From assembly GCA_947085185.1 (NCBI GenBank), contig CAMTVK010000009.1:1-51505 (forward strand): a stretch of 51,505 nucleotides of DNA, read 5' to 3'. Below the pieces are notes generated by a model. The model searched no databases and was not told the origin of the DNA. It worked only from the letters and a program-made list of their open reading frames with translations. This document shows positions 39,218-51,291 of the stretch, piece by piece (positions within the stretch are counted from its first letter, which is position 1; each line of letters starts with the position of its first letter). The translations under genes were made by a program, and so were the position numbers. The stretch is from Candidatus Fraserbacteria bacterium (GTDB lineage Bacteria > Bipolaricaulota > Bipolaricaulia > RBG-16-55-9 > DRXL01).

Positions 39218-40453
39218 CTATAACCTCTCCCCGCGGCTCAAATTATAATAATAATCGGGATCAAGCCCACACGCCCGAATGAGCGCCTCGCGTTCCTCTT
39301 GAGTTATACGAGCACGACTGTCAGCTCTTCTGATCACATTGGGCACGCCCTTGCCTCGCGCGATCTCCGCTAACAGAATCTTTTGCAAACGCTCCGGCTC
39401 GCAAAACTGAAAGACCGCTTTTGGGGTCTCAATCTTCAAGACGCTGCGCACCCGAGGGTCATAGACATAGAAGAACGCCACGTGATAGAGACTCGAGTCT
39501 AAACTGAGCGCAAAATCGCTCACGGCCTTGGGCAAATCAACGACAGATTCGCGCTCCTCCCACGACGGATAGGCTTCTTGCACAAACCAATTCGTATAGC
39601 CTAACGAGTCTTTTGGAGTCTCTCTCAGGACTGCCGTCATAAACTGACGATCACTAGCCCAGCGCCGATCCGAAGAGCCTAGACAGAACCGCAAGAGCCA
39701 ACTGGTCTCCGGCGTCTTGTTGATCGCCACTACGGGGAGCCGACGTGCCAGACACGCCTCGACGAGGCGCACCGGCGCCGCCAGCAGCGCGACAATATCC
39801 TCGCGGTCGCTCAGACGCACTCCCCAGCGATACCCCCACTCCCCCTTCAGATCGCCCAAAAGATAGTAATACAGCCCGATGGGATAGAGTGCCCCGTCTA
39901 TGAGAAGCAGCCCCTCGCGGATGTCGAGAGCCTTGAGCATCGCGAGGGCATGAGTCGGCTCGCTGGTCACGTCCGCAAGCCCTTTGACGATGTGCTCGAC
40001 CTCGCGCTCAAGGAAGTCTTTGGTCAAGTGAATTCTCCAATGATAGATATGTTTGCTCTGGACGCACGTGACGCGGGCTTCGCCGACGTTCTGGAAAGAA
40101 TGCGAGACGAGCGCGATGGTGCGCCATGTCTCCAGAGGGAATTCGTGATGGCGCTGCGGAGGATCAGCGACGAACACAGCTTGATTTGCACAGAGCGTCG
40201 TGCCATCTTCGAAGTGCATGGGGCGGGTACTGCCCCCATCCACCCCATAGATCACGCCGGTCGTGTGCTGGGCCAGCTGAAGCACAGGTTCAGCACGGCG
40301 CTCTAGGGGCGTCAGGGCCTTGATGGCGCCATCAAGCTGGAGCATGCCGAAGAGCCGACGCGCCTCGTCGCGGTGACTGACGGCCCGCTGAGCCCGCTCG
40401 CCTAAGATCTTCAGCTCCGCAAGAAAGAGTCTCCGAACGTGGGAAGAGAGCAT
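39218..40453 (-). CDS. nurA: NurA family DNA double-strand break repair nuclease
   Basis: YGVDGGS, LLIDGAL, AINK, ADSRARI motifs; downstream of rad50. Confidence 0.8.
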   Translation of the reverse strand: MLSSHVRRLFLAELKILGERAQRAVSHRDEARRLFGMLQLDGAIKALTPLERRAEPVLQLAQHTTGVIYGVDGGSTRPMHFEDGTTLCANQAVFVADPPQRHHEFPLETWRTIALVSHSFQNVGEARVTCVQSKHIYHWRIHLTKDFLEREVEHIVKGLADVTSEPTHALAMLKALDIREGLLLIDGALYPIGLYYYLLGDLKGEWGYRWGVRLSDREDIVALLAAPVRLVEACLARRLPVVAINKTPETSWLLRFCLGSSDRRWASDRQFMTAVLRETPKDSLGYTNWFVQEAYPSWEERESVVDLPKAVSDFALSLDSSLYHVAFFYVYDPRVRSVLKIETPKAVFQFCEPERLQKILLAEIARGKGVPNVIRRADSRARITQEEREALIRACGLDPDYYYNLSRGERL

Positions 40454-43314
40454 TAGCGCACTTTATAGATTGTACTGATATTGTCGCTGCCCTTCTCCGT
40501 CCGATATTCGTGATCGGCCCCTTCAACTAAGCCCACCTCGTGCGAGACCACGATCACTTGGCCAACGCGCCGCCCTAAGTCCTCTAATAAGAACTGTAAT
40601 CTGTGAATGCGATCTCGGTCAAGATAGATCGTAGGCTCGTCTAAGATCAGGGGCATGCGGCGGACGGCTTTGGCTAAGACTTGATGGATCGCGCAGCGCA
40701 GCGCAATATTAATTAAAGCTCGTTCGCCCCCGGACATCAACGACGGGTTGAGGGTGCGCCCGTTCTTCAGCTCTACTTCGATCTCGTAGTCATCGCGGAC
40801 GGTCACGCGACTGTAACTGTCCCCCGCGTCCATCAACGAGAAGAATTCATTGAAATAATAATTGAGCGCCTCAAGATTGCGCTTGCGCAGCGCAACTTTT
40901 GTGCTCTGGTAGATCGAGACGATCTCGTCCAGCTCGACGGTGAGATTCTTCAGTTCTTGGTGTTTTTGTGTCACGTGCGCCATCTCGTCTTGGAGATGTT
41001 TGAGGTGTTCCAGGCGCCCTTGAATGACTCCACGCGCTTGCGCCACGCGATCGTAGTGCTCTTGGAGCGCGGCGCGCTCTTGATCTAAGGCGCTCAAGAG
41101 TTCTCGGACTTGGGCGCGCTTGCTCTCGATCTCGTTTTGGTCTTTGAGGCGCTCTTGGATCTGGTGACGCCGGTCGAGCAGTCGTGCGATGTCACCGCGC
41201 AGCTCGTTGAGGCTTTCTAAGAGCGTCTTGCGCGCGGCGTGTCTCTCGCGCCATTGTTGGCGCACCCGTATCAGATGCTCGAGCTCGCTCTTGAGTCTTT
41301 CCAGCTTCTCGTGGGTGCTCAACGAGCGATGGAGTTCTTGGGTGAGCGTCTGCACGGCGGCGGCTTGCCTCTCTTGTTCGGCTTGTTGGGCCACGATAGT
41401 GTGTGCCTCGCTCTCGATGTGGCGACGCAGCTGATTGAGACGGGCTTGAGAGAGCTGCTGGCGCTCGAGGGCGTGTGCGAGGGTGGTGCGCTTGAGCGCG
41501 AGTTCAGTGCGGCGCGCCTCCAATCGCTCGATCTCAAACAGAAGCTGCTCGAGCGAGCTGTGCACATCCTTCCAGAGCCCAAGCCGCTGTTCGATGCGTG
41601 CCAACTCTTGTTCTTCGTATTGGACTGATCTTTCTAATTCAGCGATCTGGGGTTCGATCGCGTTGAGCGACTCTGCCAGATGTTCTGGATGAACAGCTTG
41701 GCCGCAGGTGGGGCAGCGTCCCGCGGCGAGCAACGCCTGTTTTTGGGCGAGCTCGTGTCGCAGGGCATCGTAGTGGGTCTTGGCTTCCAATACGGCCCGC
41801 TTCGCTCGATCGTGTTGCTCCTCAAGATCTCGAAGCTCCGCAGCCCACTGCGCCCGAATCTTTTCGGCGAGCTGCACATCGGGGAGCATCGTTGGGAATG
41901 GCACTTCGAGCGTTTGTGCGCGCGCCGCGATCTGATGCAGGGTGCGTCGCACGGCCTGCTCGTGGTCGGCGTGAGCTTGGGCGAGAGTAGTGAGCTCTGT
42001 CTCTAAGTGTTTGATCTGTTCGGCTTCGCGCGCGTGGGTGCGGGAGAGTTCTTCGCATTGCGCGCGCAGGTGCGCGAGGGCTCGCTCGCGGTGCGTGCGC
42101 TCGGCGCTCAGACGAGCCAGCTCTTCGCGCACTTCTTGAAGTTGAGCCCTTTGGGTTTCGATGAGCGCTTTGCACTCCGCGAGCTTTGTTGATACTGCTG
42201 TGACGTCGTCGGACGTTGTGGCTTGGTCGAGCGACTCTATAATGGGTGCAGCGTCGAGAGAGCTCTCCGCGAGTAGCTTTTTGAGGGTGAGCATGGATTT
42301 CTGATGGCGCCCGCTGAGGCTCTCAAGCTCGCTCTCGAACTCCTTGCGTTCGGCCTCGCGCTGCGCCAGCCGAGATTGTTTGTCTTCAAGTTCTTGGTCT
42401 ATCTGGTGCAGCTCTTGAGTAGCTTGGGCGAAGTGCCTGAGGGAATCTTCGTAGCTTTGTAAGAGCTTATGAGCGTTGGCGCGTCGCTCGTCGAGGTCTT
42501 TGAGATCGTTTTGGAGGCGCTCCAAGGACTCGGTAAGCTGCGCTCTTTGTTTGTCCAGCGCTTCGCGTTCGAGGGCGTCTATCTGTTGGCGCAGGCGGGC
42601 TGAGCGCTCTTCCAAAGAGCTCATGCGTCGGTTGAGAGCGCGTAGGGCTTCTTTGGAGCGCGGGGTGACAAAGAGATCTATCTTATACAGTCCCAGCAGC
42701 CCGTCGAGCATCTGTTCGCGCGTCCGACGATCCGCGCGGATGAGCCTGTCTATCTCCCCTTGGCGCACGTAGACACAATTGGCAAACCCCTCGCGGTCCA
42801 TCCCGAAGAACCGTTCGATCTCGGCGATCACGTTCTCCGTGCCGATCCACACCGAGCCGTCGTCGCAGGTGAGCTGACAGCCGTTGCGCTCGCTCTTGAC
42901 TGTGCCGCCAGCTCGTCGCAGGGCGATCTCGGCGGTGTAGCGTTTCCTGCTGTAGATGAAGCGCAGCTTCACCGAGCCGGAATCCGCACCAATCCGTAAG
43001 ATCTCGTCGAGAGTGCGCCCGATGACGTGGCGTGCCTCGCTGCCGTAGAGCGCAAAGAAGATGCTCTCTAACAGCGAGGACTTGCCGCTGCCGTTGGCCC
43101 CAGCGATCACTGTGATCCCCGGCTGGAACTGCACCGAAGCTTTCTTATAGCTCCAGAGGTTTTCGATCTCCAAGTGCTCTAGTTGAAACTGATCCCGTGC
43201 GAGCCCCAAGCGATCCTCATCGCGCAAGGCCGGACGAGCCGTCTCCGGTTCCAGCTGCACTTTGCTCAACAGATCGAGCAAATTCTCTTGTTCTCTTATG
43301 GGTTTTCGTGCCAT
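40453..43314 (-). CDS. rad50: Rad50/SbcC SMC-like ATPase
   Basis: GANGSGKS Walker A, YVRQGE Q-loop, CPTC zinc hook, MSGGE, LILDEP, VSH. Confidence 0.92.
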   Translation of the reverse strand: MARKPIREQENLLDLLSKVQLEPETARPALRDEDRLGLARDQFQLEHLEIENLWSYKKASVQFQPGITVIAGANGSGKSSLLESIFFALYGSEARHVIGRTLDEILRIGADSGSVKLRFIYSRKRYTAEIALRRAGGTVKSERNGCQLTCDDGSVWIGTENVIAEIERFFGMDREGFANCVYVRQGEIDRLIRADRRTREQMLDGLLGLYKIDLFVTPRSKEALRALNRRMSSLEERSARLRQQIDALEREALDKQRAQLTESLERLQNDLKDLDERRANAHKLLQSYEDSLRHFAQATQELHQIDQELEDKQSRLAQREAERKEFESELESLSGRHQKSMLTLKKLLAESSLDAAPIIESLDQATTSDDVTAVSTKLAECKALIETQRAQLQEVREELARLSAERTHRERALAHLRAQCEELSRTHAREAEQIKHLETELTTLAQAHADHEQAVRRTLHQIAARAQTLEVPFPTMLPDVQLAEKIRAQWAAELRDLEEQHDRAKRAVLEAKTHYDALRHELAQKQALLAAGRCPTCGQAVHPEHLAESLNAIEPQIAELERSVQYEEQELARIEQRLGLWKDVHSSLEQLLFEIERLEARRTELALKRTTLAHALERQQLSQARLNQLRRHIESEAHTIVAQQAEQERQAAAVQTLTQELHRSLSTHEKLERLKSELEHLIRVRQQWRERHAARKTLLESLNELRGDIARLLDRRHQIQERLKDQNEIESKRAQVRELLSALDQERAALQEHYDRVAQARGVIQGRLEHLKHLQDEMAHVTQKHQELKNLTVELDEIVSIYQSTKVALRKRNLEALNYYFNEFFSLMDAGDSYSRVTVRDDYEIEVELKNGRTLNPSLMSGGERALINIALRCAIHQVLAKAVRRMPLILDEPTIYLDRDRIHRLQFLLEDLGRRVGQVIVVSHEVGLVEGADHEYRTEKGSDNISTIYKVR

Positions 43315-44342
43315 GCTCGCTCCAGCAGCGCCGTCACTTCGGGATCTACATTCGAGTCTGCGATCGTCAGATCTCTGATGACTTGGTCAATCTCACGAGC
43401 GATGGATGAGAGATTCTTCTTGGCCAGGGCTTCAGATATGACTTGCTCGACATCGCTGAACTCCATGGTGACCGCCGGCTCGGTGGGGTGTTCGGTGGGG
43501 GTGCGCACATCGCGCACGCGCACCGCGAGCGCCCCGCGTTCGTAGCCAAGCTGCTCGATCTCGGCAACTGTCGGCTCAGCAGTGCTTAAGTACACGACCA
43601 CGACGGCGCCGTGCACGTCCGAGTTGGCAATTCGCTGAAGAGGGTCTTCATCCGATGGGATATAGAGAAAACGTCGTGTGACCAGCTCATGACGCTGGAG
43701 CCGCCCGTTCTGGAGGTCTATAATATTGACGCCTCGGGGACGCTTCTCGTCGAGCATCCAGCGTTCGGTGCTGCCGCAGTACGTCACGAGCTTCTCGTCG
43801 TTGCGCCAGACGCGGTGCTCGTGATAATCTCCCAGCAGCACGAATTGGGCGCCGCATTGCCAGAGTTGTTCGAGTGTCAGCTCGCCGTCACGCTCGACTT
43901 GGTCAAGCAACTGATGGCAGACCAAAACGCCGCCCTCGCACGAAGTGAGCGTCACCGAGCGTCGTCCAGAGAAATCGTGCCCGTAGATGGGGACGCCCTC
44001 CAAATCGAAGGGCTCTGCTCGCAGGTGCACAGCTAGGCCCAAATCCTCAAAGAGATCGAGCCATTGGACGCCGCGGCGCTGCTCGTGATTGCCCACGATC
44101 CCTAAGAAGTGAATGCCTGCATCCTTGAGGGTGAAAAGCCCCTGCAAGGTCGCGAGGAGATCTTCGGCGCCGGGATTGCGGTCTTCGAAGAGATCGCCGG
44201 CGTGGATGACGGCAGCAACCCTCTCGTCCAGGGCGACCTGGACGACTTGCAAGAACGCGTCGGCGAAATCCTTACGACGCTCTTCTAAGCCATACTGGCG
44301 AAAGCCTATGTGCGTATCGCCGGTGTGCAAGACTTTAGCCAT
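43296..44342 (-). CDS. mre11: Mre11/SbcD nuclease
   Basis: HTGDTHIG, AGDLF, GNHE, GDYH, YCGSTER. Confidence 0.92.
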   Translation of the reverse strand: MAKVLHTGDTHIGFRQYGLEERRKDFADAFLQVVQVALDERVAAVIHAGDLFEDRNPGAEDLLATLQGLFTLKDAGIHFLGIVGNHEQRRGVQWLDLFEDLGLAVHLRAEPFDLEGVPIYGHDFSGRRSVTLTSCEGGVLVCHQLLDQVERDGELTLEQLWQCGAQFVLLGDYHEHRVWRNDEKLVTYCGSTERWMLDEKRPRGVNIIDLQNGRLQRHELVTRRFLYIPSDEDPLQRIANSDVHGAVVVVYLSTAEPTVAEIEQLGYERGALAVRVRDVRTPTEHPTEPAVTMEFSDVEQVISEALAKKNLSSIAREIDQVIRDLTIADSNVDPEVTALLERAWHENP

Positions 44343-44816: not shown

Positions 44817-45031
44817 GTCGGTGCTATGATTTACGATGTCATCAGTGGTGCACGAGGACAAGGGGCTTTTCGTTACAGTCTCCCGATCAAGCTCACTAGG
44901 GAAGGGCATGAGCGTGACGCGGTGAAAGATATGAGCGAATTGGTTTAGAAGAGCGCGACTGTGCAATGTGCATTACATACTCCACCCAAGAAAAGAGCTA
45001 TATAAGAATGAAGGCTTCGAAAGGAGGGGCC

Positions 45032-45280
45032 ATGAAGACCAGAGAGATAAGCCAATGGAAGTGGGTCTACGTGCGGATGCGCGGCGGATTGGGCTTTGCG
45101 TTCGTGTCGGTACCGCTGGACCTGACTGTCTCCCAACTCAAACTCATGCTGGGGGCCGACCCACGCAGTGTGGTCACCGTGCGCTCGGCGTTCCGGCCCC
45201 TCGCAGAGAACGAGTCCCTCTACGGTCGTGTTGCCAACTACGATACAGTCTACATTGAGCCGTGTCGTCGAGCTGTGTAA
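45032..45280 (+). CDS. Small protein, probable ubiquitin-like beta-grasp fold
   Basis: AAGGAGG SD; VYVRMRGG...VSVPLDLTVSQLKLML...PLAENESLY...DTVYI pattern. Confidence 0.55.
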   Translation: MKTREISQWKWVYVRMRGGLGFAFVSVPLDLTVSQLKLMLGADPRSVVTVRSAFRPLAENESLYGRVANYDTVYIEPCRRAV

Positions 45281-45456
45281 AATACCCCCTCTCCCTCTCT
45301 TCAGTCAGCGGGAGCCGTCTTGGAGCTCTTCAGGGTGGCCCCCGCTGCTGTAATGGGTCAAGAGATGGTTACCAGGGCCCAAGCGGTCGAGATGCGATCC
45401 AAGCAGAGCCGGTTGAGTCTGGCGTGGACAAGCTATAGAAGAAAAGCTTTTCGAAG

Positions 45457-45723
45457 GTGCGAAGAGAGGGGGTCGCTCTCGCACTCTTGGTTTTGTTTCA
45501 GTTGAGCTTGGTGCTGCTGGGCTTGGCGCACTATGATGATCTGGAAGATTCGCACGGAACTTGCCACATAGGCGGTGGCATGACGTGTGGTCTTCTGACA
45601 ACCGCTGATCTTGCCATCCCTCTGCCGCTCGCCTACGAGCTTGTGCATCTGGATAGTATCCATCAGGAACCCATCCAACTCTCTATTCTCGAAAGACCTC
45701 CTCGCCCGCTCGCAAGAGCGTAG
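45457..45723 (+). CDS. Putative regulatory leader/arrest peptide (DUF2946/CutF/CruR-like)
   Basis: Hydrophobic N-terminus, His/Cys cluster HYDD..HGTCH....C, C-terminal ERPPR; first ORF of the copper operon; GTG start. Confidence 0.6.
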   Translation: MRREGVALALLVLFQLSLVLLGLAHYDDLEDSHGTCHIGGGMTCGLLTTADLAIPLPLAYELVHLDSIHQEPIQLSILERPPRPLARA

Positions 45724-45807
45724 CTGCGCGTTCTTAACAGACAGACTCTCGTGTTTCTCGGCTTCAGCCGCGTGAGACGGATTTTCAAACTACGAGGAGG
45801 TTTTCAG

Positions 45808-46293
45808 ATGACACGACGCAACTTGCTCAAAACCGCCGGCGCATTCGCTGTGACCGGCCTAACCACCGCTCTTACAGGGCAGAGAGTGAAGGCTCACAAG
45901 AAAGAAGCCCTGCGCGAAGTCCATCTCTATATGGGAGACGGCTATTATCGGTGGGAGTTCAAAGAAGGCGACAAGCCCGTGAGAACTGAGAGAAACGCCC
46001 CTATGAAGCTCAAAGTTGGTCAGCTGCTTTTCTTCATTGCTCACAACGAAGGACGGCTCGTCCACAATGCGCACATCGGACGAAGAGCCAATCTAACGGA
46101 GCAACGGTACGACGAGCATCTCTTTGAGAATTTCTTCTCGCTGACGCTCGAGCCGCGCAGCGTCGTCGAACTAGAGGTGCTCGTCCCGGACAAGCCCGGC
46201 GAGTGGGAGCTGGGCGACTTCTCGCTGGATCGCAACGGGAAGACGCTCTACGAAGCCACGGGCATGAAAGCCCCATTGACGGTGGAGAAGTAA
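45808..46293 (+). CDS. Tat-exported cupredoxin-fold protein with degenerate Cu ligands
   Basis: TRRNLL Tat signal; HNEGRLVHN, PGEWELGD, YEATGMKAPLTV; GAGGAGG SD. Confidence 0.7.
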   Translation: MTRRNLLKTAGAFAVTGLTTALTGQRVKAHKKEALREVHLYMGDGYYRWEFKEGDKPVRTERNAPMKLKVGQLLFFIAHNEGRLVHNAHIGRRANLTEQRYDEHLFENFFSLTLEPRSVVELEVLVPDKPGEWELGDFSLDRNGKTLYEATGMKAPLTVEK

Positions 46294-46323
46294 GAAGACC
46301 TAGCTTCCACCTCTTCTCTGCAA

Positions 46324-46378
46324 CCCTCACCCGGCCTAGGCCACCCTCTCCCTTTTAGGGAGAGGGACGGGGTGAGGG
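46324..46378. repeat. REP-like palindromic element
   Basis: CCCTCACC...CCCTCTCCC-TTTTA-GGGAGAGGG...GGTGAGGG nested inverted repeat in an intergenic position. Confidence 0.7.
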
Positions 46379-46418
46379 TAATGAAGGGTTGAGAGAGAGC
46401 CATAAGGAGGAGACACTA

Positions 46419-47027
46419 ATGCAGAATAGAAGAATCGAATTGCGTATCGAGCCTTGGGTATTGGTGGCCGCTTTGGCCGCCGTGCTCTTGGTTGGGTGGA
46501 TGACCCTGCGAGCCAACAATCCGCCCCCGGTCAGCCAGCCAAGCCCTGAACAATCCAACAGAGTCTGGGTCGTCAAGATGGTCACGAAAGTTTCTGACGG
46601 AAAAGTCGAGCAGGTCTTCGAGCCGGATCGCTTAGTGATCGCCCCCGGCGACACGGTGCGCTGGGAGCTCGAGAACGGCATACACAATACAGTTGCTTTT
46701 CATCCAGGCGATGAGCACGCGGACCATCACGACGATGCCGGCAGCCCTGGCGAGCGCCCGTTGCGCATCCCGGCGAAAGCGAAGCCCTGGGAGTCAGAGC
46801 ACATGCGCACACCGGGCGAAGCCTTTGAGTACACTTTCACTATTGAAGGCATCTATAACTATTTCTGCCATCCGCACGAATTCGATGGCATGGTCGGCGC
46901 GATTGTCGTCGGCAGTCCCAAGCCGGGGCCGGGGCTGGAGCCTCCGCAAAGAGACCTGCCCGAAGCAACCCAAGCCAAACTGAAAGAGCTAATCGCCTGG
47001 GCGAAGGCCCAGAAAGGAGTTCGATAA
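46419..47027 (+). CDS. Membrane-anchored plastocyanin/azurin-family blue copper protein
   Basis: PGDTVRW, HNTV, YFCHPHEFDGM type-1 Cu ligands; AAGGAGG SD. Confidence 0.9.
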   Translation: MQNRRIELRIEPWVLVAALAAVLLVGWMTLRANNPPPVSQPSPEQSNRVWVVKMVTKVSDGKVEQVFEPDRLVIAPGDTVRWELENGIHNTVAFHPGDEHADHHDDAGSPGERPLRIPAKAKPWESEHMRTPGEAFEYTFTIEGIYNYFCHPHEFDGMVGAIVVGSPKPGPGLEPPQRDLPEATQAKLKELIAWAKAQKGVR

Positions 47028-47029
47028 TT

Positions 47030-48022
47030 ATGAAAGCCTTGAAGAACAGAAAAGTGATCTTTGCGCTCACGCTGACAACTTTGGGCGTGGCAACCGGCCT
47101 GCTGTGGCCTAATCTGGCGCTCAAACAAAGCGTGACTCAACAACCGGAAGCGCAAGCTCAAGCGCCGGTGGTGCGCGAGTTTTTCATCACGGCTCAAGAG
47201 ACGAATTGGATGCTCGGCCCCGATATGCCTTTCGAGGCGTGGACCTATAACGGAACCGTGCCGGGGCCGGAGATCCGGGTGAAGGAGGGCGAGGTCGTGC
47301 GCATTGTTTTCAAAAACGAGCTTCCTGTGGCGACCACGCTTCACCCTCACGGCGTAGATCTGCCCAACGCCATGGACGGCGTGCCGGGCATCACTCAAAA
47401 ACCCGTACAGCCGGGCGAGACGTTCATCTATGAGTTCATCGCCCGACCCGCGGGGACGCGCTTCTATCACACGCATGGCAACGGGGAAGAGATGTCCGAA
47501 GCCGATCAGATGGACCGCGGGCTCTATGGGGCGCTCATCATTGAGCCTACGCCTCCACAACCCGTCGTGGACGAGCCGGGCCGACGGCCTCTTTTCATGC
47601 CAAAGCCCTATGACCGCGAGTACACGCTCATCTTGGACGAGTGGCGCGGCGGCGAGCATGGGCCGCACGGCGTGGGCGATTACAGCATCTTCACCATCAA
47701 TGGGAAGGCCTTCCCTGAGACAACGCCCCTGAAGGTGAGGAAGGGCGAGCGCGTGCGCCTTCGCTTAATCAATGCTGGTACGACGGCCTTTCACCCGATT
47801 CACTTGCACGGGCATCAGTTCAAAGTGGTCGCGACCGACGGAAATCCCGTGCCCTTTGGGCTGGAGCTGACCAAGAACACCATTACCGTGATGCCCGGCG
47901 AGACCTATGATATTGAGTTCGTTGCTGACAATCCAGGCGTTTGGGTGTTGCACTGCCACGAACTGCACCACGCTGGCGGCGGGATGGTCACGCTGGTACA
48001 ATTGGTACAATATGAGAACTAA
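47030..48022 (+). CDS. Two-domain multicopper oxidase (small laccase, T1 site in domain 2)
   Basis: HPHG and YHTH (no T1 Cys) in domain 1; HPIHLHG and HCHELHHAGGGM in domain 2. Confidence 0.88.
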   Translation: MKALKNRKVIFALTLTTLGVATGLLWPNLALKQSVTQQPEAQAQAPVVREFFITAQETNWMLGPDMPFEAWTYNGTVPGPEIRVKEGEVVRIVFKNELPVATTLHPHGVDLPNAMDGVPGITQKPVQPGETFIYEFIARPAGTRFYHTHGNGEEMSEADQMDRGLYGALIIEPTPPQPVVDEPGRRPLFMPKPYDREYTLILDEWRGGEHGPHGVGDYSIFTINGKAFPETTPLKVRKGERVRLRLINAGTTAFHPIHLHGHQFKVVATDGNPVPFGLELTKNTITVMPGETYDIEFVADNPGVWVLHCHELHHAGGGMVTLVQLVQYEN

Positions 48023-48044: not shown

Positions 48045-48839
48045 ATGAAGCACAACTATATAGAGCTGCGCACTCAAGCGTGGACGGTGATGCTTGCTGT
48101 TGCCGTGGCCGCATTGTTCGCGTTTATGTTCTTACGCATGGGCGGCATGATGAGGCCGATGAACCAACAGGCAACGATGACACAGATGATGGCCAGCATT
48201 GACAAAGCCCTAGGGCAAGTGAATGCAGCGCTGACCCACTCTGACGAAGCTTTGAAGACCACTGATTTGGCCGCTTTGAAAAAACACGTTCGCTTGGCCC
48301 AAGGCGCGCTCACCGGCCGAGGCGGAGCCATGATGCAGATGCAAATGATGGGACAGATGATGAAAGGCCCGATGATGACCATGTCTGGCCAGGGCATGAT
48401 GGGGATGTCGATGGAGCATCATACAAATATGATGGCAGCTCGCGAAGCAGCTCAGTCGAGTCTTCAGAGGGCTCGTGAGCACTTTGAAGAGGCCCTGAAA
48501 GCATATAAGTTGGAGACGGCCCAAGAGCACGTCCGATTAGCAGCAGAGCAATTGCAAGCGGCACAAGGCACAGCAGGGAGCAACGATCCCAAAGCTGGGG
48601 CTCTCACGTATTTGAAGGAGCAGATGGCCCAGATGATGGGGCAGGGGATGATGCAGTCCGATCTGAAGAGCAAGATCGACTGCGCGGTCCCATGGCTGGA
48701 GAAGGCCATCGCGCTGCATGAGCTGCACATGAAAGATCCCTCGACGACTACGGAGCAATCGCAGATGGAGCTTATGGATCAGATCAAGAAGGCCCATGAG
48801 TGTTTGACCGGCAAGTCCATGCCAGGGATGCCCCATTGA
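48045..48839 (+). CDS. Met-rich helical membrane-anchored protein, probable Cu-binding
   Basis: TM helix, multiple MMxM tracts, His in helices; GAGGAGG SD. Confidence 0.7.
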   Translation: MKHNYIELRTQAWTVMLAVAVAALFAFMFLRMGGMMRPMNQQATMTQMMASIDKALGQVNAALTHSDEALKTTDLAALKKHVRLAQGALTGRGGAMMQMQMMGQMMKGPMMTMSGQGMMGMSMEHHTNMMAAREAAQSSLQRAREHFEEALKAYKLETAQEHVRLAAEQLQAAQGTAGSNDPKAGALTYLKEQMAQMMGQGMMQSDLKSKIDCAVPWLEKAIALHELHMKDPSTTTEQSQMELMDQIKKAHECLTGKSMPGMPH

Positions 48840-48932: not shown

Positions 48933-49334
48933 ATGAACAACTTCACCTACGTTGTCGAGACGAAGAAATCGTTCCCAGAAGCTGTCATTGCTGTGCGCAA
49001 GGCCGCCGAAGCCCACAAATGGGGCGTCTTGGGCGATTATGATTTTTCGGAGATCTTAGCTGCCAAGGGCTTTCCCCAGGCAGAGCAAGTGAAGTCATTA
49101 GATATCTGTGCCCCGGCGCACGCCCATGCGCTCATGGGCACGGAGCGCCTGACGGGACTCTGTATGCCCTGCAGTGTCTTAATCTTTACTGATAGAGGCA
49201 AGACGAAGATCGCGGCAATGCGCCCTGGCGCGGTGATGCCTCAGATCTTCCCCCATGTGATGCAGAAAGCGGGTGATCTGCCCAAGAAGATTGACGCTGA
49301 GATTCAGTCTATTTTGGATACGGCAGCACAGTGA
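48933..49334 (+). CDS. DUF302 domain protein
   Basis: KSFPEAV...WGVL...ICAP...MPCSVLI...AMRP. Confidence 0.85.
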   Translation: MNNFTYVVETKKSFPEAVIAVRKAAEAHKWGVLGDYDFSEILAAKGFPQAEQVKSLDICAPAHAHALMGTERLTGLCMPCSVLIFTDRGKTKIAAMRPGAVMPQIFPHVMQKAGDLPKKIDAEIQSILDTAAQ

Positions 49335-49345
49335 GAGAGGGATCA

Positions 49346-50881
49346 ATGAGTCAGCGCAGAAACTTAAACCGACGGGAGTTCCTACGCTGCGCCAGCCTTA
49401 GCGCAATGGCGTTGGTGACCGGCAGTTGGTTAAGCGGTCGGGCCACAAGCAGCCTCCCGGACTTAGAAATCGCTCTGAGGGCAACTGCCTCGGAGGTCTC
49501 TATACTCCCCGGCCAACCGACCCGCGTCTGGACGTATCAAGGGGAAGTGTTGCGGGGCAACCCCACCAGCTTACAAGCGTTACCAGGCTCTTATCTGGGC
49601 CCCATTATCCGGGCGCGCCAAGGGCAGCGAGTCCGCATCCGCTTCACCAACAACCTGCCGGAAAAGACGGTCATCCACTGGCACGGCCTGTACACACCGG
49701 AGAGGATGGACGGGCATCCTCGTGATGTCATCGGTCCAGGCCAGAGCTATGTCTACGAATTTCCAGTGATCAACCGAGCAGGGACGTATTGGTTTCATCC
49801 GCATCCCCACGGGCGCACAGGGCCGCAGGTCTACTCCGGTTTGGCCGGGCTCTTCTTAGTATCGGACGACGAAGAAACCCAGGCTGGCCTCCCCAGCGGC
49901 GAGTACGACCTGCCCTTGATCATACAAGACCGCACCTTTGACACGAGCAATCAACTTGTTTACTCGACCGGCGGCATGGGCATGATGGATGGCTTCTTGG
50001 GCGAGCGCATCCTGGTCAACGGGCATCCCAATTTCACTCTGTCGGTCGCGACTCGGGCTTACCGTCTGCGCCTTCTTAATGGCTCCAATTCCCGCATCTA
50101 CAAGTTGGCCTGGAGCGATGGAACGCCTCTCATCGTCATCGGCACCGACGGCGGCCTTCTAGAGACACCGGTCCCTCGGAGTTATGTGATGCTTGCACCC
50201 GGAGAGCGGATTGAACTGTGGGCCGATTTCAGCCAGCGCCCCGTAGGCACAGAGATAGTATTGCAGAGCTTGGCCTTTTCTGGGGCGGAAGTCGGCATGG
50301 GCGGCATGATGGGAGGTGGTCAGCCCTTGCCCAACGGCGCTCCTTTCCCTGTGCTTAAGGTCCGCGTAGAGCGTCAGGAGCCAGAGGCGCTCACCCTGCC
50401 CACGAAGCTGTCTGCCATGACCCGTTATCGGCCTACAGATGCCGTCAACTATAGCAATCCCCGCACCTTCGCCGTTTCTTTGAGCATGATGGGCATGATG
50501 CAGGTGCAATGGCTGCTCAACGAGCGGCCGTTCCAAATGGAAGAAGTGGCCCCTAATGAGAAAGTGAAGCTCAATACGTTAGAGATGTGGGAATTTGTCA
50601 ATGAGACGACGCCGATGGCCATGGCCCACCCCATTCACATCCATGGGCCGCTGTTTCAAATTATCGAGCGACAGGTTCGCCCTGACCAGATCGCCAGCTG
50701 GGAGACAGTGCGCGCCGGCTACGTGGATGAGGGCTGGAGGGATACAGTGCTCTTGATGCCCGGCGAGCGCGTGAAAGTCTTGCTCAAGTTTGAGAACTAT
50801 ACAGGGCTGTACGTCTATCACTGCCATAATTTAGAGCACGAAGACGCAGGAATGATGCGCAACTATTTGGTGAGTACCTGA
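49346..50881 (+). CDS. Tat-exported three-domain multicopper oxidase (CueO/bilirubin oxidase-like)
   Basis: NRREFL; HWHG, WFHPH, HPIHIHG, HCHNLEHEDAGMM; Met-rich loops. Confidence 0.93.
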   Translation: MSQRRNLNRREFLRCASLSAMALVTGSWLSGRATSSLPDLEIALRATASEVSILPGQPTRVWTYQGEVLRGNPTSLQALPGSYLGPIIRARQGQRVRIRFTNNLPEKTVIHWHGLYTPERMDGHPRDVIGPGQSYVYEFPVINRAGTYWFHPHPHGRTGPQVYSGLAGLFLVSDDEETQAGLPSGEYDLPLIIQDRTFDTSNQLVYSTGGMGMMDGFLGERILVNGHPNFTLSVATRAYRLRLLNGSNSRIYKLAWSDGTPLIVIGTDGGLLETPVPRSYVMLAPGERIELWADFSQRPVGTEIVLQSLAFSGAEVGMGGMMGGGQPLPNGAPFPVLKVRVERQEPEALTLPTKLSAMTRYRPTDAVNYSNPRTFAVSLSMMGMMQVQWLLNERPFQMEEVAPNEKVKLNTLEMWEFVNETTPMAMAHPIHIHGPLFQIIERQVRPDQIASWETVRAGYVDEGWRDTVLLMPGERVKVLLKFENYTGLYVYHCHNLEHEDAGMMRNYLVST

Positions 50882-50910
50882 CCAACGAAATCAGAAAGGG
50901 AGTGAACGCT

Positions 50911-51291
50911 ATGGCAGAGCAACGACCAACAGAGAAGCCCATCGCGGCTTTTGTGCTCTCGCTCTTGGCGGGTCTGGGGATGCTGACCGTCGGAGTCGGA
51001 GCGATGATGTCCGGTGGAGGGGACTGGGGGATGGGCGGCTGGATGTGGGGCCATGGGATGATGCGGGGCTTTGCCCCAACGTTCTGGTGGCTGTGGTTTT
51101 GGATCATCGCTGGGATCGTCGTCTTAGTGGGAGCCGCGATGCTCTATGCCAAGCCGGAGCAGCGTCAGACATGGGGGATTGTGATCTTAATTGCTTCAGC
51201 GCTCAACTTTTTCTTAAGCATGGGGCTGGCAGGGGGGCTGGGTGTGATCGGAGGAGTACTGGCATTAAGACAGACACCCTGTCAGTTTTGA
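50911..51291 (+). CDS. Small Met/Gly-rich integral membrane protein
   Basis: 3-4 TM helices with a GMGGWMWGHGMM loop; last gene of the copper operon. Confidence 0.7.
   Translation: MAEQRPTEKPIAAFVLSLLAGLGMLTVGVGAMMSGGGDWGMGGWMWGHGMMRGFAPTFWWLWFWIIAGIVVLVGAAMLYAKPEQRQTWGIVILIASALNFFLSMGLAGGLGVIGGVLALRQTPCQF

Follow-up and report, generated by a model that had tools for sequence, protein, structure and literature searches.

The opening of a stem that masks a gene's Shine–Dalgarno (SD) sequence, by a ribosome stalled on the preceding leader, is a textbook mode of bacterial gene control. Leaders predicted to sense metals number in the thousands; to our knowledge, just two of them, CutF and CruR, have been put to the test, both from Proteobacteria. 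CutF of Rhodobacter capsulatus is exported through the Sec pathway and binds copper through Cys residues located 45 amino acids before a C-terminal PPP (PMC9973294), and either copper or the loss of EF-P prolongs a pause that opens a stem over the SD of cutO (PMC9973294, PMC8456105, bioRxiv 10.1101/2025.02.05.636593). CutF-like leaders have also been described ahead of nickel/cobalt genes and other genes (PMC9973294). In CruR (Bp2923) of Bordetella pertussis, the spacing between the Cys motif and the arrest site is conserved, and a default stall keeps the operon on until copper relieves the stall and translation is turned off (PMC9426467); the arrest itself has been demonstrated (PMC12992588). 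In RAPP, RGPP and RAGP peptides, an Arg residue stands two residues before the Pro or Gly of the ribosomal P site, with Pro in the A site (PMC10951233, PMC12992588).

The window considered here is the whole stretch of 51,505 nucleotides that was analysed, from a Candidatus Fraserbacteria contig. Near its end, a copper operon on the forward strand, to which all operon coordinates below refer, begins with a leader ORF of 88 amino acids read from GTG (45457..45723) and of CutF-like architecture. In our assessment this leader is probably a CutF-like, copper-induced ribosome-pausing switch, whose Pro-Pro codons are predicted to mask the SD of the first gene. That the 88-residue ORF is a real, conserved leader is established by a family of 14 aligned proteins, and its translation agrees with an earlier sequence-only reading, which had pointed out a hydrophobic N-terminus, a His/Cys cluster and ERPPR. 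The hydrophobic N-terminus corresponds to a predicted Sec-type signal peptide (45457..45528; RR n-region, hydrophobic core, conserved G-L-A-H), as judged from sequence, conservation and a helix in the structural model; G22 and A24 are each conserved in at least 90% of the 14 proteins, and cleavage after Ala24 is likely. The Cys/His stretch, HYDD..H.GTCH...C, belongs to a conserved cluster, H25...H33..C36-H37-x6-C44 (45529..45588), which is a candidate metal or disulfide sensor with putative metal-binding capacity. The ORF ends in SILERPPRPLARA, with the C-terminal residues ERPPRPLARA, in which the E-R-P-P-R codons GAA AGA CCT CCT CGC (45691..45705) form a candidate pause site. The AlphaFold model of the leader is of low confidence overall (mean pLDDT 61, pTM 0.29) and contains a helix at residues 2-32, with a pLDDT of 86-92 for residues 1-20; the middle of the protein is a low-confidence, unstructured region of variable sequence and fixed spacing.

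The start codon of the window copy is uncertain, with TTG at 45487 as a possible alternative, since the SD of the GTG reaches only -2.5 kcal/mol with the genome's own 16S tail and since the ATG used by an 83%-identical homolog (L034), 8 codons upstream, reads ATA in the window. The best leader starts of five relatives have SD energies of -6.7 to -11.3 kcal/mol (for L037 the value refers to the ATG at 1107; the ATG at 1113 gives -0.6). Between 45420 and 45459, the window departs from L034 by the change of ATG to ATA, the loss of 2 nt and the replacement of a GTA Val codon by GTG, and the DNA upstream of the leader is unrelated to the promoter/operator region of L034. In the window copy, it seems, the operon has come to lie behind different upstream DNA. 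Given that both the ATG and the promoter of L034 are absent, translation of the window leader may be poor or may begin at TTG 45487. A sigma-70 scan found no promoter beside the window leader, the nearest candidate lying at 45255-45283. Further upstream, the neighbourhood comprises a GC-rich inverted repeat without U-tract (45308-45348), located between the leader and a 104-residue ORF without Pfam match (44966-45280, forward strand), and, on the reverse strand, a row of genes for NurA, an SMC/Rad50-like ATPase and an Mre11/SbcD-like metallophosphoesterase (39218-44342).

The 14 proteins of the family alignment come from leader searches and profile searches (1 match in the single-sequence search, 7 and 7 in two profile searches), and five further loci with DNA (L007, L034-L037) were found with leader and next-gene queries. 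C36, C44, E79, P81, P82 and R83 are invariant in all 14 proteins and H37 is conserved in at least 90% of them, the motif taking the form E-[RK]-P-P-R. Spacing is equally constrained: C44 is separated from P81 by 37 residues, gap-free, in 14/14 proteins, and C36 by 45 residues in 11 proteins and 46 in the other three. The proteins are 81-101 amino acids long, contain 4-9 His residues each, and end 0-5 residues after PPR. Six of six loci share the gene order leader, Tat protein, cupredoxin, oxidase, with variable upstream genes, a gap of 53-97 nt between leader and first gene, and a leader identity to the window protein of 31-83% (six related loci). The same leader is present in L088, a sequence also labelled 'Candidatus Fraserbacteria bacterium'. 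Conserved leaders ahead of orthologous operons, a search for which had been proposed along with the first description of the ORF, are documented at all six loci with DNA, within the family of 14 proteins.

As far as sequence searches indicate, the leader family is small and narrow, because its profile matched 2 of 184 phylum genomes. Among more remote homologs of the first operon gene, 22 had no convincing leader before them; in one of these, L010, an upstream frame ends in PP and has neither a signal nor a Cys/His cluster. Three further leader matches are weak (E about 0.01) and lie within long frames. In the ESM Atlas, the leader resembles nameless clusters of 86-91 amino acids at 0.94-0.95; its likeness to a single DUF6769/'DUF2946' cluster, at 0.91, comes from only 99 shared features. 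Among NCBIfam models, CzcI is matched by one of the 14 proteins, with an E of 0.1.

The genes controlled would be those of a copper operon. The first (45808..46293) encodes a cupredoxin/sulfocyanin-like protein of 161 amino acids with a Tat signal (a weak TAT_signal match, below cut-off). Its best ESM Atlas matches are of the Copper-bind/SoxE type at 0.89-0.91, which is a lead only, and a PDB sequence search of the protein gave no match. There is no Cys in its C-terminal ligand loop; where a type-1 site usually has its Cys, the protein appears to have Asp (GDFS). Tat-type cupredoxin-like proteins of the family to which this gene belongs have expanded, being present in 15 of 184 phylum genomes in up to 6 copies. 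It is followed by a plastocyanin/azurin-family cupredoxin (46419..47027; PF00127, E 7e-14), a small two-domain multicopper oxidase (47030..48022; PF07732, PF07731), a Met-rich helical exported protein recognized from its sequence, with no Pfam match over the cut-off (48045..48839), a DUF302 protein (48933..49334; PF03625, E 2.7e-13), a multicopper oxidase with a twin-arginine N-terminus (49346..50881; PF07732, PF07731), whose plasmid homologs are annotated as multicopper oxidases and which is presumably CueO/CutO-like, and, at the end of the operon, a small Met/Gly-rich membrane protein (50902..51291; DUF4064 below cut-off). A REP-like palindrome, ACCCTCACCC...CCCTCTCCC-loop-GGGAGAGGG...GGGTGAGGGT, lies between genes 1 and 2 (46322-46380); seven similar sites occur in the genome, and copies are found in the leader intergenic regions of L178 and L181.

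The candidate pause site and the SD of the first gene are linked by a predicted helix. The anti-SD arm lies within the leader coding sequence (45693..45704), its core CCTCC consisting of the Pro81 codon and two bases of the Pro82 codon, and the SD arm (45793..45804) contains AGGAGG at 45795-45800, the SD of the first operon gene, with an energy of -12.8 kcal/mol against the genome's 16S tail. In the fold, the two arms are joined by small local hairpins formed by the intergenic region of 84 nt (45724..45807). The sequence-only reading had noticed that the ERPPR codons are complementary to the SD of the next gene over 9 bp that could extend further, and this holds: ACCTCCTCG (45696-45704) is perfectly complementary to CGAGGAGGT (45793-45801), and the helix grows to 12 contiguous base pairs, one of them G-U (45693-45704 with 45793-45804). 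Folding of the region, which had been suggested as a check, gave over 45660-45830 (171 nt) a predicted pairing probability of 1.0 for the CCTCC:GGAGG pairs, the helix masking AGGAGG ahead of ATG 45808. Taken in its entirety, the 171-nt region shows no unusual stability, with z = -1.45 and 15 of 200 shuffles folding as well. The duplex between leader tail and SD (-20.2 kcal/mol) is equalled in 0.7% of 2000 synonymous recodings, and 6 of the 83 other co-directional gene pairs that approximate gene calls delimit in the genome reach the same level. Judged on the single sequence, the pairing in the window is somewhat beyond chance.

Across the loci, the RNAalifold consensus is exactly the window helix, 95% of its cells being paired versus 37-70% for slid controls. 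All six loci have CCT for the first Pro and CC right after it, opposite GGAGG, while the genome-wide share of CCT is 20% for the first Pro of PP and 23.5% for [RK]PP, and the helix reaches beyond the Pro codons in every case. It is better than synonymous recoding (p<0.02) at four of the six loci; at L007 and L035 it is no better, 20% and 80% of recodings being as good, and at L037 the core helix has a probability of 0.1 in one folding window. The five core pairs are invariant across the loci, and covariation is not significant, since one of 10 pairs changes on both sides and 191 of 500 shuffles reach that level. As the loci are related, six of six does not amount to six independent events.

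These data bear on the possibility that the ORF encodes an ordinary small secreted metal-binding peptide, or is a decaying leader, with Pro codons whose pairing with GGAGG is coincidental. Any SD is complementary in part to CCN-CCN, the stability of the region, the control gene pairs and the covariation analysis do not set this helix apart, and the loss from the window of the ATG and promoter seen in L034 would suit a decaying copy. Coincidence is nevertheless spoken against by CCT-CC at six of six loci against a background of 20-24%, by a helix that runs past the Pro codons at all of them, and by a peptide middle that is variable and unstructured yet of fixed spacing, and we regard this explanation as quite unlikely.

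The effect of a ribosome on the helix was modelled. In the window, ribosomes with P-site codons 76-86 cut the modelled cost of opening the ribosome-binding site (RBS) from 18.8 to 5.7-9.8 kcal/mol, and P-site codons 40-74 or 88 leave it unlowered. In five relatives, with the whole leader free to refold, a ribosome on the first Pro shifts the RBS cost by -2.8 to +1.6 kcal/mol, a small change because upstream pyrimidine tracts take over the pairing. When all upstream RNA is treated as covered, as by queued ribosomes, a ribosome on Pro81 lowers the SD-core cost by 3.5-11.3 kcal/mol at five of six loci and by just 0.5 kcal/mol at L036. The earlier proposal that a ribosome at RPP frees the SD is supported by the window model, and the weak modelled opening in relatives speaks against it. 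Since any ribosome on codons 76-86 opens the helix, a stall is not strictly needed, and the fall in opening cost at all these codons, beyond the prolines, is what would be expected from plain translational coupling or from an export monitor, in which a passing or finishing ribosome opens the helix, translation of the operon follows that of the leader or the activity of Sec, and copper acts via CsoR or not at all. Such a scheme, for which CsoR-like promoter palindromes in three of five relatives could alone explain copper control, has however no need for the invariant Cys36 and Cys44, for E[RK]PPR or for the fixed 37-residue spacing found in 14/14 proteins, and we consider it unlikely.

The palindromes in question, CCCCACC-N3-GGTGGG, follow a TTGAC/TTGCC-17-TA.ACT promoter in three of five relatives. 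Sites located just after -10 boxes are L007:1128, L035:131 and L036:937, together with G000:C2:69969, C2:74095 and C18:14654. The palindromes resemble type 2 CsoR operators by their two G/C tracts (PMC3902906) and lack the TAC/GTA dyad. The palindrome was not found upstream of the window leader, and with 2 mismatches the pattern occurs 10 times in the genome, not above the 12 of a reversed control. The genome encodes both CsoR and EF-P, and the CsoR-type operators of the relatives, combined with the CsoR of the genome, favour induction by copper.

The direction of control could also be that of CruR, with a default stall that keeps the operon on and is relieved by copper, another metal or a disulfide. 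CruR itself works in this way (PMC9426467), the ligand of the present leader is putative, and CutF-like leaders precede Ni/Co genes too (PMC9973294). The cargo of two multicopper oxidases and cupredoxins is nevertheless that of the copper-induced cutFOG, the CsoR-type operators imply induction by copper, and the RAPP that would provide an EF-P-proof constitutive arrest is present in 0 of 14 proteins; a CruR-like polarity is accordingly the option to which we give the least credence, as very unlikely.

Copper induction of the CutF type, the reading we prefer, would proceed as follows. On free mRNA, the predicted helix would close the SD of the first gene. The leader peptide, if it behaves as CutF does, would be exported co-translationally through SecYEG, and with Pro81 in the P site Cys36 would lie 45 residues away, a distance that would place it where the copper motif of CutF sits, in the periplasmic vestibule of SecY. 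Without copper, the pulling force and EF-P would let the ribosome pass fast and the helix re-form. Binding of copper to the His/Cys cluster would lengthen the diproline pause and hold the ribosome on the anti-SD, leaving the SD free and the operon translated. In the relatives, a CsoR-type operator likely adds a transcriptional layer of copper control, and the window copy is without that promoter region. We infer the export of the leader, copper binding, pausing and the direction of control by analogy.

Further leader candidates occur in the same genome. A second CutF-like leader (G000:C2:70092-70421, L172:593-922, forward strand) has 109 residues, a signal-like start, a His-rich part followed by CC...CCxxC, and the ending LHLRPPTT; it stands behind a TTGACA promoter with a CCCCAC palindrome and heads genes for an exported protein, a YncE-like propeller and ABC/MacB proteins. 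Matches to leaders of this type were found in 11 of 184 phylum genomes, and the nine that could be parsed end in [HRP]PPT. The third (G000:C18:12090-12398, L173:3091-3399, forward strand) has 102 residues, a CxC and the ending IFHPPT with CCT CCT codons; a 14-bp stem starting from its stop masks the SD belonging to a gene for a DUF1573 protein. Its neighbours include csoR and a gene with an HMA domain, and a homolog exists in G012. A rule-based leader scan of the genome returned 4 ORFs with PP and 1-4 with control dipeptides, so that the rule alone is not discriminating and the C2 and C18 leaders rest on conservation. Two deltaproteobacterial ORFs (L056 and L070) bear a signal, are Cys-rich, have RVERPPR immediately before the stop and are followed about 105 nt later by a thioredoxin/DsbA-like gene with CPFC motifs, which makes them candidate redox-sensing leaders. 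They were rejected as members of the present family, being unrelated RVERPPR leaders with CCC/CCG codons.

The sister leaders also inform the choice of Pro codon. For the first of two paired prolines, E. coli avoids the slow codon CCU (PMC8129111), and in B. subtilis distal CCUCC-like stretches can pair with SDs and repress them in vivo (PMC12697547). In C2-type leaders the first Pro is CCT in three of nine and the masking stem lies at or after the stop in six of nine, and C18-type leaders have CCT CCT in two of two although the stem lies after the stop. Because of this last arrangement and the slowness of CCU, the choice of CCT may serve pausing rather than pairing. A degenerate contig scan for ERPPR...GGAGG...ATG gave at least 120 stretches, of which 80 were analysed; among the matches listed, the motif is closely followed by a stop in 32, the majority look random, L088 alone is a member of the leader family, and no evidence of a general CCT bias was found.

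Which of the described arrest leaders is the closest can be judged from motif, spacing and RNA. The sequence-only reading had likened the tail to the RAGP/RAPP-like motifs of SecM, ApdA and CruR, a likeness that does not survive the alignment, as none of the 14 proteins carries such a motif and Glu holds the place of Arg: two residues before the P-site Pro stands Glu in 14/14 proteins and, unlike in RAPP peptides, the Arg adjoins the prolines. The leader was accordingly rejected as a RAPP/RGPP/RAGP arrest peptide of the SecM, ApdA or ApdP type (R[AG]PP or RAGP in 0/14). Sec/YidC activity is what SecM, ApdA/ApdP and the RGPP peptides monitor, and their motif is R-[AG]-[PG]-P. In SecM, ApdA/ApdP and uDF_RQH, a stalled ribosome opens the SD-masking stem of the next gene, and the same is predicted here (PMC7897499, PMC10987492, PMC10951233); from the sequences compared, the analogy with SecM and ApdA holds for the logic and not for the motif. 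CutF, with its EF-P-type diproline pause, is a better model than SecM or ApdA, since the Arg of the present leader is one residue nearer the prolines than that of RAPP. An FPPR pause has been rated 'moderate' in an efp mutant (bioRxiv 10.1101/2024.08.03.606492).

CruR and the present leader are both the first ORF of a copper operon, and in both the distance between a Cys motif and a C-terminal Pro-Pro motif is conserved. They differ in that CruR carries CXXC and RAPP, works by Rho-dependent termination, is turned off by copper and needs no signal peptide (PMC9426467). Membership of the leader in DUF2946/CruR (PF11162) was rejected, CXXC and RAPP each occurring in 0/14 proteins, and a PF11162 search found no Pfam match for the window protein or nine family members. 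Two sub-threshold PF11162 matches exist elsewhere in the genome, and the better one, L040, was discarded as antisense to a membrane-protein gene.

ERPP endings are found in other leader-like ORFs as well. Four of 40 listed plasmid oxidase loci were inspected: three have a leader-like ORF ending in PP, and the fourth, L042, a transcription regulator. At L044, from a Frigidibacter plasmid, the ORF ends in NERPPQLRLL, CCT encodes its first Pro, and the oxidase SD pairs with the end of its coding sequence, the masking bases being the last three codons and the stop and not the Pro codons as here. At L043 (Microvirga) there is no strong duplex between tail and SD (-9.6 kcal/mol). ERPP tails and predicted anti-SDs within coding regions thus occur, on the sequences compared, among alphaproteobacterial CutF-like ORFs, and the list and cluster logos of CutF-like leaders may already include ERPP-type clusters (PMC9973294). 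In the text of the literature searched, the leader family, leaders of this lineage and Pro-Pro arrest codons serving as an anti-SD were not found.

The system with which the window operon shares most is cutFOG of Rhodobacter capsulatus. Both have a short leader, with a Sec-type signal in CutF and a signal-like hydrophobic N-terminus here; both leaders stand ahead of genes for a copper protein exported by Tat (Tat-type and cupredoxin-like here) and for a multicopper oxidase, and both have a stem that masks the downstream SD (here predicted). The anatomy of the leader, its 45-residue spacing, the cargo and the EF-P of the genome all agree with CutF. By the rules given for CutF-like leaders (PMC9973294), the leader is shorter than 150 amino acids, has PP within its 15 C-terminal residues, lies adjacent to the genes concerned and carries a putative Cys/His metal site. 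An SD-masking stem within reach of the stalled ribosome, as in the SecM and ApdA/ApdP peptides, is predicted, with a weaker effect in some relatives. The CutF tail reads PEPEGPPPRL with a Cys motif about 45 amino acids before it, and in the present leader Cys36 lies 45 amino acids before Pro81. [quoted passage not shown] A bolder and more tentative proposal can be made, which we hold possible and somewhat doubtful as a whole: E-[RK]-P-P-R would be an arrest motif of its own, tuned by copper and not of the RAPP kind, and its Pro-Pro codons would have been selected to be the anti-SD, so that the same 15 nucleotides would act as pause and lock; the paused ribosome would free an SD 100 nt away by sitting on its partner and not by unwinding a nearby hairpin; and a deep-branching lineage would have at least three such leaders per genome, some of them also under CsoR. 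In the two Pro codons, synonymous changes would separate the RNA lock from the peptide pause. Relative to CutF and CruR, the leader family would take their common design to another phylum, with a different arrangement of Cys residues and a tail that is not RAPP.
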